Virus record (IMG/VR): IMGVR_UViG_2721755725_000017
Reading direction: 5' to 3' (one strand)
DNA: 46,775 bases
DNA from: a virus
Taxonomy: Duplodnaviria; Heunggongvirae; Uroviricota; Caudoviricetes
Shown here: positions 42,001-46,775 of the stretch, piece after piece
How the letters are laid out: every line of letters begins with the position of its first letter
Numbering within the stretch: position 1 is the stretch's first letter
Program-made: the position numbers

Positions 42001-45000
42001 AGAAAACCTGTTATCGGTCAACGAACAGGAAAAAACGATAAAACCCACTGGATTATTTTTATGAAATAGGCATCCAGTGAGTAGGTTCGTAAGGTTACAG
42101 ATACGTATATCTGAATAATTAAATTCAGTTCTGTAAATAAAATTTAATCCTTAACCGGAGGGATTCCTGCACCCTCAGAACATCAGGAGACCGCCCGAAA
42201 GGGCGGTAATGAAAAATGGCTGAATTAACCAAATGGCTACAAAACACGATTACCGGAATTGAAACGGTAGTAGACGATAAATCGTTTGTATGTGATGAAA
42301 TAGTATTCAAAATCGATGTGGTTAAAAACGTACTTACCGCATTTAAAGTCGCGCTGGTATCGCTGGAAGCCGAACCGGTGACATGGCGATATCGCTACGT
42401 GAGAAAAGGCGTTACGAACTTTCAGGAGAAGCCGTGGGTTGGTGGCTGGAAATATGTACCGACAAAAGAGGATTGCAACGACAGGCCGAACTATGAAATT
42501 CAGGCGTTATTCACGGCCCAGCCTGTGCCACTGACACCCGAAGGATTGATTAAAGCGGTGCGCTTCTATGAACAGGTTAAGAGTGAAAATCCGCCAGTCG
42601 AAACCGGAGCATGGAAAGACGCTGTTGACTGAGTGCTCAAAGAGGCTTGTCAGGCTGTAAACATTGGCATCAAAGGAGAGTGAGATGAACGGACAAATAT
42701 CAATTGTTCGACCGGGAGCATGTGACGATCGCGAGATACGAATGATTATTCGTCTGGCGATGGGGAAAACAATAACAGCTCTCATTACTCCTGAAAATCT
42801 CGCATTAGCATTAACAGGAAAGTCAGACTTGCCAGTAGAGCTAAAGCTGCGAAATGTTGAGATTAAGGTGAAATAGTTATGAATACTCTTACCAAAGAAT
42901 GGTTACAGAACACGATTACCAGCATTGAGTCAGCACGGGATGAAATACCGTTCGGACTCGATGAAGATCAAAACAACATGCTTACCGCATTAAAAATTAC
43001 ACTGGCATCACTGGCAGCAGTATCGGATGAACGAGCAGCCTATGAATTATTTATGGAGAAGCGTTTCGGGGAATCTGTAGATCGCCGTAGGGCAAAAAAT
43101 GGCGATAGAGAATACATGGCATGGGATATGGCGCTTGGCTGGATTATCTGGTGTCACCGCGCCGCCATGCTTCAGGGTAGCCAACCTGTAAGCCAAACTT
43201 ACAACTTGCCAGAATTAATCGAAGGCATGGAAGTTTCCATTGATATAAGCACTTGTGATGCTGATTTAGGTAATCGCTATTTCGGCACCGTCACCGAAGC
43301 GTTAGAACTTGATACAGCCAAGAATGGTTACATCCTCTTGGTTCAGGACGCAGAGCCAAACTTCGATGTAAATGGCAACTCTCCGGGAACTCCGGATAGT
43401 TGGATAAGCTGTAGTGATCGAATGCCTGAAAAGGGCCAGAACGTGCTTATTTCGGTGAATTTCGATAGCTCTCTGGTTGAACCGCTAATATGCTCCGCAC
43501 GCTATACCGGAAGCACCTTTCGGCGCGGAGATGCAACGATTAAGCCGGGTAATGGTATTGAGCAAGCAACTCACTGGATGCCGCTACCGGAACCGCCGCA
43601 GGAGGTGAAGTGATGAACAACTTAATGATCGACCTTGAGACGATGGGGAAAAATAAGGATGCACCGATCGTTTCCATTGGCGCGGTGTTCTTCACTCCAG
43701 AAACCGGAGACATCGGACAAGAATTCTATGCGGTTGTCAGCCTAGACAGTGCTATGAAGCAAGGAGCTACACCTGACGGCGATACCATCCTGTGGTGGTT
43801 GAAACAAAGCCCTGAAGCGCGAGCTGCAATCTGTATTGATGATACTTTGTCGATCAGCGATGCTCTCTCAGAACTAAACCATTTCATTAACCGGCACGCA
43901 GACAATACGAAATATTTAAAAGTCTGGGGTAACGGGGCCACCTTCGACAACGTAATTTTACGTGGAGCTTACGAGCGAGCAGGACAAATCTGCCCGTGGG
44001 CGTACTGGAATGACCACGATGTACGCACGATCGTTACGCTTGGGCGTTCCATCGGATTCGACCCCAAAATGGACATGCCTTTCGATGGCGAACGGCACAA
44101 CGCCCTGGCTGATGCCCGTCATCAGGCAAAATATGTTTCCGCTATCTGGCAGAAATTAATTCCTGCCACCAGCACAGAATTATGATTTTCCCGGGTGCAG
44201 CCGGTTTTGATGGAGAAAATTATGAACACCTTGTTTTTACTGATGGCTGAATTCAATACCCCAAACATTGAACTCTCAGCAGTTAGCCAAAAGTACTTTG
44301 GTATGAGTCCAGCCACGGCAGAAGCAAAAGCAAACGCTTGTAAGTTGCCCGTTCCAACATATCGCATCGGCACATCACAAAAAGCAAAACGTTGCATCAA
44401 TATTCAAGATCTTGCGGAATACATAGACAAAAGGCGAGAAGAAGGACGTATCGAGTGGGAACAGGTCAGAACAGTCAAACAGAAGGACAAAGAACATCAC
44501 TAAAGAAAAAACCCGCCTGAAGGCGGGTTTTCAAAAAGCACCAGCTATGATCATGCTGCTTTGCGACGACGAAGCTTACCCTGCTGCTCTTTACCAGAGA
44601 CAGTAGCGTGAGTGAACGCATTAGGAGCAGCCTTCATCAGAACTTCAACAGCAGCACCCATACCTGCGAATGCTTTCATTGTGTCGAACTTAACCTGTGG
44701 CTTGGTTGCTTTTTGATCTTTCATAGAAAACTCCCGAGACAGTAAAGGCGTCTCTAACCCTTTCTTTAAAGCTAGCTTGTTTCGCTAACTTATGCCAATC
44801 GATCATGTCGATTGGTGACATCGTTTCTTAGTAGTTTAAGCACAAAACGACTGCCATAGATGTACCTTTAAGGTAATCTGGACGGGTATCCTACAATTTG
44901 TAGACCCTTCTCGTCTATACCTACTGAGCAAATTTAAGAAAGATATCCTGCAGCTCATCAATGACTGCCGACATCACATAACCGCACTGTTCCATGCGGA

Positions 45001-46775
45001 AACCAAAAGACTCGTAATACTGCACCAGTTCTGGTACTGGCTCTACAATGTGGACAACTTTACATTCAACAGCTTTACAAAATATAAAAGCACTCATAAG
45101 AGTGAGTAAAACCATGCGCCCTTTCAATGGGTGAGATTCATCTTCTCTAGAAAACCTTTCGATCATATGGATACGAAAGATGTTTTCTTCAACCCCATAA
45201 ACACAAATTGCTGCTCCTGATGGTATTCCCTGAACCCGACCTTGCTGAACAAGTTTTATGCAGAACTCATACTTTTCTCTGGAGTTGCCATAGGTACTTA
45301 ACGCATAGTCCCATTCAAGCTCACCATAGCCACCACACAGAATCTTGTAATCATCATCACTGAGCGGACCAACAGCAAGAGGTAAGCCGACATGATCAAT
45401 AATCAACTGGATATTGTTACGTACTGATTGACCTATCTCGTCCAGGGTAAGCATCATGGCCTCTCAAGCGGAACACTAAAAGTCGCATTATATCTCATTC
45501 TTAAGCCGCGTATGGATTACACCTTGAAATGAAAACGCCGGGTTCCCAATAGGCTCCCACAAAGTATATAACTATTTGTTTTTCAAAAACGGTACATCCT
45601 ATCGAGCATTGGTGCAACGCTAAACCGACCACTCCAGTGAACGTCAGTTTTTTCAGGCATTGCGCTGGTTTGGTTGATTTTTTGCATTTCAGAATTACCG
45701 TGCATTTTCAAATGTAGAGATTATTTTATCGATATATCATGGGGTTATGTTATTCAGCATCACTATTCAGGAGGCTCAATAGCGGGGTACTATACCATAA
45801 CAACAGGAAGCGCCTGTCTCATTGCAAAAGAAAATTGAGATCCTCTCAAGGCATGAAGCTCTCACGAAGTGATGGAAATAATCTTATTAGCCGTTAACTT
45901 TGTTAAGGCCAATGATAAACAATCCAGGTTCGACGATAAATAAAAAATCACACATTAAACTCTGGTGATATATCTCCCTGCTAATAGCATTGATAGAGAA
46001 AAAAGAACCCAATAAATATTGGGTCCTTTTATATAATGCCTTCCATACTATCGAAGAACTTCACATATTATTTCTCCGATTTAACCCCGAACAAATCATA
46101 AATTAATTTAGAAGTGTCTGTAAGTATTTTAATCTCTTCCTTTGAGGTTGGGTCAAACGACTTCGCGAAGCTAATTAATTGTGGTGCAGCATCTCGCATT
46201 TTGCTTAAAATATCAGGATCGAGCGTTCCTTCATTCACCAGATGTGACATCTTATCCAGATAGCCATCAAAATTCATTTCTCCCCCATCAGCCAGACGCT
46301 TCATCTCTCCCAGGTACTTCTTCATATCACGTTGAGATAATTTTTCAAACTGAGCTTTCAGGTAGCTCTCATTATTTTCATTAATATACACTGTTTCTGA
46401 TAAATCTGCGTAGGCACTAGAATATGAAAGTGAAATTAACAGCGAAGCAAATAATTTTAAGCTGTTGTCATCATGTTCCTGGCAGGCATTAACAAACGTT
46501 AAAAAACCAGAACCTATTGCTTGAAAATGTATATTCGCTAAAGGTTCATTATCCTTAGATTCCTCATAAAATAGCTGAACCGTGGAGGGAAGGTCATTCT
46601 TATTTTCTACATCAAAAGTACATTGTTCAATGGGCATTGCATCTTTATTATCCCCAGGATTACATATACTATTAATCGCGAAATGAAAAATAGCCCGGTC
46701 AACAACTGATGCAATAAAGTCACGATCGTTTAAATCCTCATCAGTGCAATCGTCAATATACTTATTGACCCACAT

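Follow-up and report, generated by a model that had tools for sequence, protein, structure and literature searches.

A mobile two-gene prophage cassette combines a divergent GNAT-fold protein with a small basic partner and a candidate structured RNA

Two minus-strand genes lie just inside the right attachment site of a prophage in the window, by which we mean the whole stretch of 46,775 nucleotides that was analysed, and they raise the question of what such a pair does for its carrier. A sequence-only reading had described them as accessory cargo, the last two genes before attR, encoding a 178-aa GNAT-like protein and a 57-aa basic protein with its own palindromic operator, and had proposed structure predictions and a comparison with GNAT toxin families. 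The two ORFs, the ribosome-binding site, the terminator and the 21-bp palindrome were all present where it had located them. The carrier of the gene pair is an mEp460-like prophage integrated at dusA. Its attL (1476-1582) is 82% identical to attR and the hybrid attP is present in phage mEp460, in agreement with the pair being the last genes before attR. The crossover maps near 45602-45609, DNA to the right of attR belongs to the host, and the integrase of this prophage is frameshifted. Two features mark the boundary:

45602-45708, no strand: attR, dusA-type attachment repeat (att comparison, RefSeq)
45583-45711, minus strand: displaced host dusA 5' fragment, a 42-aa ORF (ORF list, RefSeq, att comparison)

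RefSeq locates a 'tRNA-dihydrouridine synthase' fragment at attR. The displaced dusA fragment and the old dusA promoter region point toward the GNAT gene, no terminator was predicted between fragment and gene, and there may be read-through from the displaced host promoter into the cassette. Elements with dusA-specific integrases form the family context of the carrier (Farrugia et al., 2015; PMC4482086) and, like them, it enters the 5' end of dusA, provides a new 5' end for the gene and leaves the displaced 5' fragment behind at attR. This likeness covers the carrier only; the cassette is also known from prophages with different integration sites and from different positions within the phage genome.

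Positions 44507-45492 of the minus strand form a single cassette of two genes that is horizontally mobile and apparently autonomous, in the manner of a phage 'moron', and in which a -10-like element, the GNAT gene, a spacer of about 196 nt, the 57-aa gene and a terminator follow each other. Its elements are given below, P1 and both Shine-Dalgarno motifs as read from the sequence.

45487-45492, minus strand: P1, -10-like hexamer TATAAT of a putative promoter, lying about 33 nt before the start of the GNAT gene
45460-45465, minus strand: Shine-Dalgarno GAGAGG serving the GNAT gene; 5 nt separate it from the ATG at 45454
44921-45454, minus strand: gene for an acidic, divergent GNAT-fold acyltransferase (putative activity) of 177 aa; mEp460 gp23, WP_000956557.1, phrog_4350
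44888-44917, minus strand: TAGACG-N18-TAGGAT, putative internal promoter P2 of the small gene, immediately behind the stop codon of the GNAT gene
44731-44735, minus strand: Shine-Dalgarno GGGAG serving the small gene, adjoining hairpin H5 on its 3' side (see below)
44551-44724, minus strand: gene for the 57-aa basic, mostly disordered partner; mEp460 gp24, WP_000654815.1, phrog_2741
44507-44532, no strand: intrinsic terminator closing the cassette, an 11-bp G+C-rich stem followed by a T run

The cassette is regarded as moron-like because it has a terminator and a putative promoter element of its own and occupies at least five positions in different prophages, inserted at varying places in the genome between genes that adjoin each other in related phages. 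The contexts were the following:

Context 1: between xis and attP
Context 2: between the Q antiterminator and the holin gene (the Eeyore match is among the evidence)
Context 3: within a myovirus tail module
Context 4: at prophage ends (the Shewanella locus is among the evidence)
Context 5: between int and the tail fibre gene (Morganella)

The terminator is usable on both strands and here also serves the convergent xis gene, and its block, TAGCTGGTGCTTTTTGAAAACCCGCC...GGCGGGTTTTTT, accompanies the cassette in every context. In every genus compared, the cassettes have a hexamer of the TAnAAT type 30-37 nt before the ATG, irrespective of the sequence around them. P1 is a putative promoter, and no convincing -35 element was seen for it. 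Like other morons (bor and lom of lambda, or stx between Q and the lysis genes), the cassette brings its own terminator together with a -10-like element and uses several alternative sites, including the Q-holin site of stx. Unlike them, it is a conserved two-gene unit with an internal, probably structured RNA.

Both genes were present on the same strand in 104 of 104 scanned loci, separated by spacers of 93-248 nt. The pair was also detected in Salmonella and Morganella and, at GNAT identities of 43, 42 and 32%, in Shewanella, in phage Eeyore and in a metagenomic locus, respectively. The two genes are obligately linked, never occurring apart among the loci examined. They are conserved in at least ten genera under purifying selection, and the family is confined to prophages of Gammaproteobacteria. 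The cassette is carried by 358-562 of 5,426 complete E. coli genomes (roughly 7-10%), among them STEC of serotypes O157:H7, O111 and O26, as well as by many Salmonella, Enterobacter, Edwardsiella, Photorhabdus and Shewanella prophages, and both genes are intact in the viable phage mEp460. A single-query search for distant relatives among viral contigs gave no match. In PHROGs, no homology to ordinary phage early proteins was found, phrog_4350 and phrog_2741 both being of 'unknown function', and this result bears out the view of the pair as accessory cargo and not core machinery. That the genes are obligately paired had escaped the sequence-only reading.

Searches of Pfam, NCBIfam, PADLOC and PDB with single sequences returned nothing for either protein, no family of PADLOC-DB v2 was matched at E ≤ 1, and a search with a 32-sequence profile yielded chance coiled-coil or armadillo designs alone. 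RefSeq labels both proteins hypothetical, and a literature search by protein accession retrieved no paper mentioning either of them.

The larger ORF had been listed as 44921-45457 on the minus strand, encoding 178 aa. While this ORF exists, all homologues and the RefSeq annotation begin one codon later (ML...), so the coding sequence was set to 44921-45454 and its product to 177 aa. The protein has a pI of 4.8 and a net charge of about -10, and all lineages of the family have an acidic protein here (pI 4.3-4.9; net charge -8 to -17). Structure prediction indicated the GNAT core fold (beta1-alpha1-alpha2-beta2-beta3-beta4-alpha3-beta5-alpha4-beta6). At the sequence level, no Pfam match was obtained at E ≤ 1, hence no Pfam GNAT model, and just one of 69 family representatives touched PF00583 (E = 0.0058). 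Motif A (Q/R-x-x-G-x-G/A) is absent from the beta4-alpha3 loop, which reads H-P-L-K-G-R-M and retains only the central Gly; the fold supports the earlier reading of a GNAT-like protein. A broad family profile retrieved GNAT chains only from the PDB, at marginal scores and with nourseothricin acetyltransferase on top (E = 0.012). Invariant residues E100 (beta4), Y148 (alpha4) and E139-P-V (end of beta5) occupy the positions expected for GNAT catalysis and CoA contacts and are compatible with acyl-CoA binding and acyl transfer, and Asp and Glu residues are conserved in the acceptor region. Among structural neighbours, SpeG, RimI/RimJ, NatD and Gcn5 are as close as the GNAT toxins. IS1203 insertions that knock out the enzyme gene and leave the partner gene intact occur in nature.

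The 57-aa ORF proved to be a real gene, annotated as WP_000654815.1 and as mEp460 gp24; it is considered truly coding because substitutions relative to homologues fall mostly on third codon positions (for example 13/16 or 15/21). Its product contains 12 Lys/Arg residues and has a pI of 10.5, and it is basic across homologues (pI 9.4-10.8). The AF2 model (pLDDT 62) consists of one central helix, residues 15-37, in an otherwise disordered chain, and shows neither a DNA-binding fold (HTH, RHH or other) nor one recognisable as nucleic-acid-binding or membrane-associated. At the C-terminus (...RRRKAA), homologues retain basic residues ahead of AA or VA; this tail fits ClpX C motif-2, R/H-x-K/R-K-hydrophobic (PMC3983244), and the terminal AA resembles the ssrA tag, although natural variants without the C-terminal KAA are known. 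Neither a Lys residue nor the N-terminus is conserved family-wide (K31 is replaced by R in Edwardsiella, K50 by R in Shewanella and Eeyore), and the partner was on this ground rejected as an obligate substrate of Lys acetylation. The 246-aa relative P0140 was also rejected as a natural fusion with the partner at its C-terminus (hhalign probability 0.2, E = 0.3). The partner is the more conserved protein of the pair and its gene the most constrained part of the cassette, with nucleotide identities of 84-91% where the GNAT gene shows 60-75%, and a divergence at 4-fold sites of 0.03-0.30 compared to 0.54-0.76. The small gene displays a strong optimal-codon bias (CAI 0.56 here, 0.53-0.61 across the family), far above that of the enzyme gene (0.29 here, 0.25-0.32 across the family).

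The palindrome upstream of the small gene, CCAATCGA-N5-TCGATTGG, is a perfect 8+8 repeat at 44795-44815, 71 nt before the ATG. When the 196-bp spacer was shuffled, 93 of 5,000 shuffles contained at least one such repeat (p about 0.02), and the density in the window is 0.75 per kb. Taken alone, the palindrome is thus only mildly unusual; its significance comes from conservation and covariation, on which, in spite of that p value, a chance event was rejected. Alignment and RNAalifold place it in a predicted series of hairpins:

44736-44876, minus strand: structured leader/intercistronic RNA
44863-44876, minus strand: hairpin H2
44817-44855, minus strand: hairpin H2b
44795-44815, minus strand: hairpin H3, identical with the palindrome
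44769-44791, minus strand: hairpin H4
44736-44754, minus strand: hairpin H5, abutting the Shine-Dalgarno motif

For H2, H3 and H4 together, 89% of cells were paired, compared to 17-43% when the partners were slid; the covariation score of 0.292 (versus 0.196 ± 0.014) was reached by none of 500 shuffles, and eight pairs had changed on both sides, a number matched in 8 of 500 shuffles. This covariation test is suggestive. On the sense strand 41 G·U pairs were counted versus 10 A·C, and the minimum free energy of the leader is -59.3 kcal/mol (z = -3.4). In one clade of homologues (L005/L100) the palindrome arms have diverged asymmetrically, so that three of eight positions are mismatched as DNA half-sites, yet all of them pair as RNA via G·U, on the sense strand only. 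Because of the covariation and the G·U pairs, we read the palindrome as one of at least four successive conserved sense-strand RNA hairpins and not as a DNA operator. Rfam 15 gave no match in the spacer, sub-threshold matches in the window overlapping the terminator hairpin only, and no match at gathering score in six homologous loci. The published sRNA-17 of an mEp460-like prophage (PMC7719688) was dismissed as this RNA, its sequence mapping near 39177, elsewhere in the window. The P2 motif, TAGACG-N18-TAGGAT, with a constant distance between its two blocks, is shared by 33 of 38 distinct spacers, Xenorhabdus and Photorhabdus included, while the 18 nt between the blocks vary in sequence. It was missed by the promoter scan because it matches the consensus at just 8 of 12 positions; P1 and P2 are both weak by consensus. 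P2, about 90-120 nt further upstream than the palindrome, probably drives the small gene, so that the palindrome would fall within the transcribed leader.

Known GNAT toxins acetylate aminoacyl-tRNA and present basic tRNA-binding surfaces. As the cassette enzyme is strongly acidic, its target would have to be a different one, and the acidic surface expected from its pI of 4.3-4.9 argues against a tRNA substrate. The GNAT-DUF1778 family is defined by a DUF1778/RHH or DUF4065 partner (PMC9177977). Like these systems (TacAT, AtaRT, ItaRT, KacAT), the cassette is a two-gene module of mobile elements with a GNAT-fold enzyme of about 160-180 aa, the invariant Tyr in alpha4 and Glu in beta4 recall the catalytic sites of the toxins, and the disordered region of the partner may be expected to fold on binding. 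In contrast to them, its partner has neither DUF1778/RHH nor DUF4065 (nor any domain known to Pfam, NCBIfam or the PHROG annotation), the two genes follow each other in the opposite order, their overlapping operon is replaced by a probably structured spacer of about 196 nt, and the enzyme is acidic and not a basic tRNA binder. Identity to the toxins amounts to 9-13%, sequence homology is undetectable and a Pfam GNAT match is missing. The pair is outside the known GNAT-DUF1778 toxin family.

We favour, with a probability of about 35%, a lysogen-expressed enzyme/inhibitor pair that works like a toxin-first toxin-antitoxin, abortive-infection or addiction module. The cassette would be expressed in the lysogen from its own promoter, possibly with a contribution of dusA read-through, and low levels of enzyme would acylate a positively charged target by means of the Asp/Glu-rich acceptor side together with E100 and Y148. 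The partner would be produced in excess from P2, the structured leader setting its translation; its central helix would fold onto the enzyme and the Arg/Lys tail would occupy the acidic substrate site, rendering the enzyme inactive. Owing to its C-terminal R-x-R-K-A-A tail the partner would be a short-lived ClpXP substrate and, upon shut-off of host expression (for example by a superinfecting phage) or loss of the cassette, would decay and free the enzyme. Antitoxins usually evolve faster than toxins, whereas here the partner is the more conserved protein, which would also fit contact with a conserved host component. The missing PADLOC match, the acidity that sets the enzyme apart from known GNAT toxins, the KAA-less partner variants, the weak consensus of P1 and P2 and a covariation test that is suggestive but not conclusive also speak against this reading. 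More doubtful is the further-reaching proposal that an acidic GNAT made at a low level, a highly expressed, disordered and ClpXP-labile basic antidote and a structured leader of about 150 nt gating antidote translation would form a new prophage-borne toxin-antidote or abortive-infection class, whose acylation target would be not aminoacyl-tRNA but a protein or metabolite of cationic nature.

A tentative alternative, to which we give rather low odds, is a non-toxic modification enzyme whose substrate would be a protein of the host or of a phage, or else a small cationic molecule, which could be a polyamine, a streptothricin- or aminoglycoside-like antibiotic or a processed microcin; the partner would be a specificity, recruitment or regulatory subunit, and the gain might lie in lysogenic conversion, in resistance or in counter-defence of the kind exerted by AcrVA5, an anti-CRISPR acetyltransferase. 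An acidic surface and the Asp/Glu conserved in the acceptor region suit the cationic substrates handled by RimI/RimJ, NatD/Naa40, Gcn5/PCAF, SpeG and streptothricin acetyltransferase; the top sequence-level PDB match is nourseothricin acetyltransferase, a marginal match is to entry 5c82, and the N-acetyltransferases are as near structurally as the toxins. Many prophages carry the cassette co-oriented in the late operon, at the Q-holin site, where it would be transcribed in lytic growth, and the high conservation of the small protein suits contact with a conserved host component. However, none of those enzymes has an obligate 57-aa partner, and the cassette family differs from them in lacking the canonical Q/R-x-x-G-x-G/A and in being restricted to prophages in Gammaproteobacteria. 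A disordered obligate partner, a degron-like tail and the large difference in expression signals would be unusual for an acetyltransferase that confers resistance, the putative promoter and the terminator of the cassette suggest lysogenic expression over an early counter-defence role, and similarity to known anti-defence families was not found, its phrog being of 'unknown function'. In operons of the AcrVA5 type, a phage GNAT-fold acetyltransferase gene is followed by a small aca regulator gene with a palindrome nearby; unlike there, the small protein of the cassette lacks an HTH, its palindrome behaves as an RNA hairpin, and the cassette looks lysogen-expressed. We consider it unlikely that the roles are exchanged, the small protein being an abundant basic effector of nucleic acid, of ribosomes or of some other conserved component of the host, to which its Arg-rich tail may bind, with the long structured leader throttling its synthesis as in type I toxin mRNAs and the acidic GNAT controlling it by acetylation or sequestration. 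The opposite charges of the two proteins, the exceptional constraint and optimal-codon bias of the small gene and the structured leader (about 150 nt), in which one hairpin directly adjoins the Shine-Dalgarno motif, would accord with such a role, but there is neither a recognisable nucleic-acid-binding or membrane fold nor a conserved Lys for the enzyme to modify, and the degron-like tail is more typical of a labile protective partner. The IS knock-outs of the enzyme also argue against a small toxin in need of an enzyme antidote, because the disrupted genes coexist with an intact small gene.

The operator claimed earlier fared worse. That the 57-aa protein has a promoter of its own and regulates itself by binding the 21-bp palindrome as DNA is highly improbable: the protein is basic, the 8+8 palindrome is perfect and near its ATG, and arms conserved or co-changing in many homologues would also be expected of a dimer-binding site, but a DNA-binding fold is absent, the L005/L100 arms and the overall excess of G·U over A·C point to sense-strand RNA, and the palindrome belongs to a row of four or more conserved hairpins that follows the conserved promoter-like blocks. 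The operator was rejected accordingly. Decaying, non-functional remnants would be in keeping with the position at the edge of a prophage with a frameshifted integrase and with the annotation as hypothetical proteins. Given intact genes in viable mEp460, purifying selection across genera and the frequency among complete E. coli genomes, however, this notion has a negligible probability and is effectively refuted by the conservation data.

Both proteins are labelled 'hypothetical' everywhere despite a prevalence of about 7-10% in complete E. coli genomes, and a self-contained cassette of about 1 kb is easily cloned and tested. If the favoured toxin-antidote or defence reading is true, the cassette would be a GNAT-based system in which both the kind of partner and the class of target are new, and a recurrent cargo of dusA-integrating and lambdoid prophages would be explained; a modification or counter-defence enzyme would instead represent a new phage strategy. 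In both cases the leader, with its many conserved hairpins, adds a new candidate regulatory RNA. Synonymous divergence in the 57-codon gene is strikingly low and calls for explanation; RNAalifold over the small ORF and its 3'UTR gave weak covariation (term -0.86), and a further RNA-level function of this unusually conserved block is possible.

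The sequence-only reading had described the two minus-strand genes next to attR as unassigned cargo. That finding is real and richer than noted, as the genes belong to a widespread mobile cassette that consists of a GNAT enzyme, a structured RNA and a small partner. This GNAT-based two-gene accessory module is hitherto uncharacterised; neither of its proteins was mentioned in any paper in a literature search, and PADLOC defence models gave 0 matches for the cassette. The relevant features of the window are as follows.

1476-1582: attL, one arm of a 107-bp imperfect direct repeat
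44507-44532: terminator of the cassette
44551-44724, minus strand: small (partner) gene, WP_000654815.1, gp24 of phage mEp460
44731-44735: ribosome-binding site of the small gene
44795-44815: 21-bp palindrome CCAATCGA-N5-TCGATTGG, hairpin H3
44888-44917: TAGACG-N18-TA(G/C)GAT blocks, intervening sequence variable
44921-45454, minus strand: large (GNAT) gene, WP_000956557.1, gp23 of phage mEp460
45602-45708: attR, the other arm of the repeat (82% identity between arms)

The window is a segment of an E. coli (STEC-like) chromosome with a lambdoid prophage inserted at the 5' end of dusA. Positions 44400-46100 are 100% identical to many O111/O157 genomes, and 44400-45708 share 98% identity with mEp460, a viable phage in which gp23 and gp24 sit between a PrtN-type excisionase and attP/int. 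The attP of mEp460 is the expected attL/attR hybrid with a crossover near TCGAGCAT at 45602-45609, RefSeq annotates a displaced dusA 5' fragment at attR, and the prophage belongs to the dusA-specific integrase system described by Farrugia et al. (2015; PMC4482086). The displaced fragment and its upstream region (45583-45900, minus strand) are directed at the GNAT gene with 0 predicted terminators between them, so that integration may have placed the cassette under the control of the old dusA promoter.

The large ORF is present where it had been reported, with a length of 177 rather than 178 aa, as all homologues start with ML and RefSeq takes the second ATG. Its product gave 0 matches to Pfam, NCBIfam or PADLOC models, and PHROGs assigns it to phrog_4350, annotated as function unknown. 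AlphaFold2, provided with 32 homologues, returned a confident model (pLDDT 92.7, pTM 0.89) with the strand/helix order of GNAT plus an additional N-terminal helix, which bears out the GNAT-like pattern noticed earlier. The top structural neighbours of the model were TacT3 (12.2) and 7byy (12.0), the latter deposited merely as a 'bacterial toxin' acetyltransferase, followed by NatB, NatD, Ard1 and RimI at 11.8-12.0; no GNAT subfamily stood out in this comparison, and Foldseek searches against PDB and BFVD had the same outcome. A broad family profile produced sequence matches to GNAT chains only, the best being nourseothricin acetyltransferase with a marginal E of 0.012. A canonical acetyl-CoA motif is indeed missing, motif A being replaced by an invariant H-P-L-x-G-x-M. 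Across the family H97, E100, E139-P-V, Y148 and G152-F153 show little or no variation, and these residues appear to sit at the places used for CoA binding and catalysis in GNAT enzymes. On the basis of the model, the protein is placed in the GNAT superfamily by fold only. A search of 1.8 billion proteins yielded 93 representatives at E ≤ 1e-3, which makes the family a small one; its members are acidic in every lineage, with a pI of 4.3-4.9 and a net charge of -8 to -17.

The 57-aa ORF is truly coding, since its differences from homologues fall mainly on third codon positions (for example 13/16 and 15/21). Searches of Pfam, PHROGs, NCBIfam and PADLOC revealed no family match beyond phrog_2741, again annotated as function unknown. 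The protein is basic (pI 9.4-10.8), and its AlphaFold2 model (mean pLDDT 62) contains only a central helix (residues 15-37) between low-confidence tails, with neither HTH nor RHH. In the deepest alignment G23, P34, E46 and G49 are the sole invariant residues and no lysine is universally kept. At the C-terminus, basic residues always precede an AA or VA ending (RRRKAA, RHRKAA, RMRKAAA, SKKAVA, RKAKAA, SKRAA). In Enterobacteriaceae these tails conform to ClpX C motif-2, R/H-x-K/R-K-hydrophobic (PMC3983244), and the ending resembles the ssrA LAA tag. The tail may thus act as a degron; natural variants lacking it occur.

In an alignment of 18 diverse spacers, two invariant blocks stand immediately 3' of the GNAT stop codon. 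Of 38 distinct spacers, 33 carry them, those of Photorhabdus and Xenorhabdus (TAGACA-N16-TAGGAT) among them; the blocks may constitute a weak internal sigma-70 promoter, the putative P2 of the small gene. Downstream of them follows a row of hairpins, H2 (TTACC-N5-GGTAA), H2b, H3, H4 and H5, the last of which (GAGAC...GTCTC) abuts the Shine-Dalgarno sequence of the small gene; a hairpin at this place recurs with other sequences in Xenorhabdus, Photorhabdus, Shewanella and phage Eeyore. For H2, H3 and H4 together, 89% of cells pair, compared with 17-43% when partners are slid by 1-3 columns. Their covariation score of 0.292 exceeds that of shuffles (0.196 ± 0.014; 0/500 reach it), and both sides have changed in 8 pairs, which 8/500 shuffles attain. 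The spacer of the window folds with -59.3 kcal/mol (z = -3.4), and Rfam holds no matching family for it. As the structure was drawn from the same, mutually related sequences used to test covariation, the support for conserved RNA hairpins is good but not conclusive.

The palindrome, ribosome-binding site and terminator reported for the small gene are all present. By itself the palindrome goes only mildly beyond chance, as 1.9% of spacer shuffles contain one and such palindromes occur at 0.75 per kb across the window. In one clade the arms of H3 are CTGATTGG and CCGATTGG, which carry 3/8 mismatches as a DNA palindrome and form a complete RNA helix via G·U pairs that exist on the sense strand only. 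In total there are 41 G·U pairs against 10 A·C. The proposal that the palindrome is an operator of the 57-aa protein is unsupported because of this RNA pairing together with the missing DNA-binding fold, and we regard it as very improbable.

When loci were collected by means of the GNAT protein, all 104 had the small gene downstream of the GNAT gene on the same strand, 93-248 nt away. The pair occurs in Salmonella, Morganella and a widespread Enterobacter-type prophage, and is also kept in Shewanella (GNAT identity 43%), in phage Eeyore (42%; small ORF of 53 aa) and in a metagenomic phage fragment (32%). The two genes are one mobile unit. Annotation pipelines often miss or miscall the small gene: in Eeyore it is unannotated (PP925821.1; L024:4795-4956), and on a metagenomic contig (L110:685-1059) it was over-extended upstream to 124 aa. 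The cassette lies between xis and attP in E. coli and Salmonella, between the Q antiterminator and holin in Atlantibacter, Edwardsiella, Eeyore and others (the site occupied by stx in Stx phages), within a myovirus tail module in Photorhabdus, at prophage ends in Shewanella and Pseudescherichia, and between int and tail-fibre genes in Morganella. A -10-like hexamer (putative P1), which precedes the GNAT ATG by 30-37 nt, and a conserved 3' block ending in an intrinsic terminator travel with it, and similarity between loci ends just beyond both. By its varied positions, the cassette fits the definition of a moron.

Of 5426 complete E. coli genomes, about 358 carry near-identical cassettes, and about 200 others match the small-gene end only. 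In two O111:H8 genomes (NZ_CP077519.1, NZ_CP077540.1) IS1203 interrupts the GNAT gene (break at about 45315) and leaves the small gene intact. A Salmonella locus (L109:5381-5848) carries an extra 155-aa gene (HTH_31 plus 2TM) between the small gene and xis, so this spot collects further accessory genes. In a related prophage with the cassette at the Q-holin site, an Acb2/Tad1-hairpin protein of the anti-CBASS/Thoeris sponge family follows the lysis genes (L114:6058-6351).

Constraint is unequal along the cassette. Divergence at four-fold degenerate sites is 0.54-0.76 for the GNAT gene, saturated versus homologues, and 0.03-0.30 for the small gene. Nucleotide identity amounts to 60-75% in the GNAT gene, about 50% in the spacer, 84-91% in the small ORF and 78-89% in the 3'UTR and terminator; ATGGGTGCTGCTGTTGA, within the small ORF and 3'UTR (44551-44724 and 44503-44550), remains unchanged even in Photorhabdus and Xenorhabdus. 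Calculated with weights from the Sharp & Li E. coli table, the codon adaptation index is 0.53-0.61 for the small gene (about 0.56 in the window), compared with 0.25-0.32 for the GNAT gene; 13 other genes of the window range from 0.15 to 0.44. The low synonymous divergence of the small gene is at least partly due to selection for high expression, and the block of small ORF and 3'UTR may have an additional RNA-level function or give rise to a 3'UTR-derived sRNA.

The anatomy, a mobile cassette of an acidic GNAT-fold enzyme, a structured sense-strand RNA and an obligate, basic, disordered and codon-optimised partner, is much firmer than the mechanism. With a probability of roughly 35%, we propose an enzyme/labile-inhibitor mechanism like that of a toxin-first toxin-antitoxin or abortive-infection module. 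The enzyme would be made at a low level, possibly with additional transcription from the old host promoter in the dusA context, and P2 would drive an excess of the partner, whose translation would be set by the structured leader. The helix and basic tail of the partner would occupy the cleft and acidic acceptor site of the enzyme. Once synthesis of the short-lived partner stopped, because a phage had shut it off or the element had been lost, the freed enzyme would acylate a cationic target and growth would stop. Comparison with known GNAT toxins places the cassette outside the GNAT-DUF1778 toxin-antitoxin family. Common to both are the fold and, presumably, the logic of an enzyme plus a folding-on-binding partner, but the partner in the cassette is neither DUF1778, RHH nor DUF4065, the two genes stand in the opposite order with a long spacer between them, and the enzyme has an acidic surface and no sequence homology to that family.

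A doubtful possibility is that the GNAT protein works with an accessory subunit as a non-toxic enzyme of modification, resistance or counter-defence, for which speak the equally close neighbours NatD, RimI, SpeG and streptothricin acetyltransferase and the location of the cassette in the late operon of many phages. That the small gene is so extremely constrained would suit a role of its product as the effector, controlled by the enzyme, but the IS1203 insertions seen in nature, which disrupt the enzyme gene and spare the small gene, count against this arrangement, which we consider unlikely. That both genes are junk has next to no likelihood.

Other observations concern the prophage itself. 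In the immunity/early region, and without relation to the focal genes, 39177-39195 (minus strand) matches exactly 19 nt of the 'degenerative' form of sRNA-17, a published prophage sRNA of E. coli K1 RS218 (PMC7719688). A tRNA-Arg(tct), tRNA-Arg(tcg), tRNA-Met cluster (34025-34276, minus strand) upstream of a 616-aa ORF shows the layout of a Stx-phage late region, stx genes being absent here. Compared with mEp460 int, the integrase gene (1668-2766, plus strand) is frameshifted by one inserted nucleotide near 2428-2431; a stop at 2432 results and the C-terminal catalytic region is no longer in frame, so that the prophage is probably unable to excise by itself. GGTTCCC/GGGAACC motifs, probably arm-type binding sites of the integrase or Xis, are repeated on both arms flanking the att core (45530-45560 and 1610-1650).
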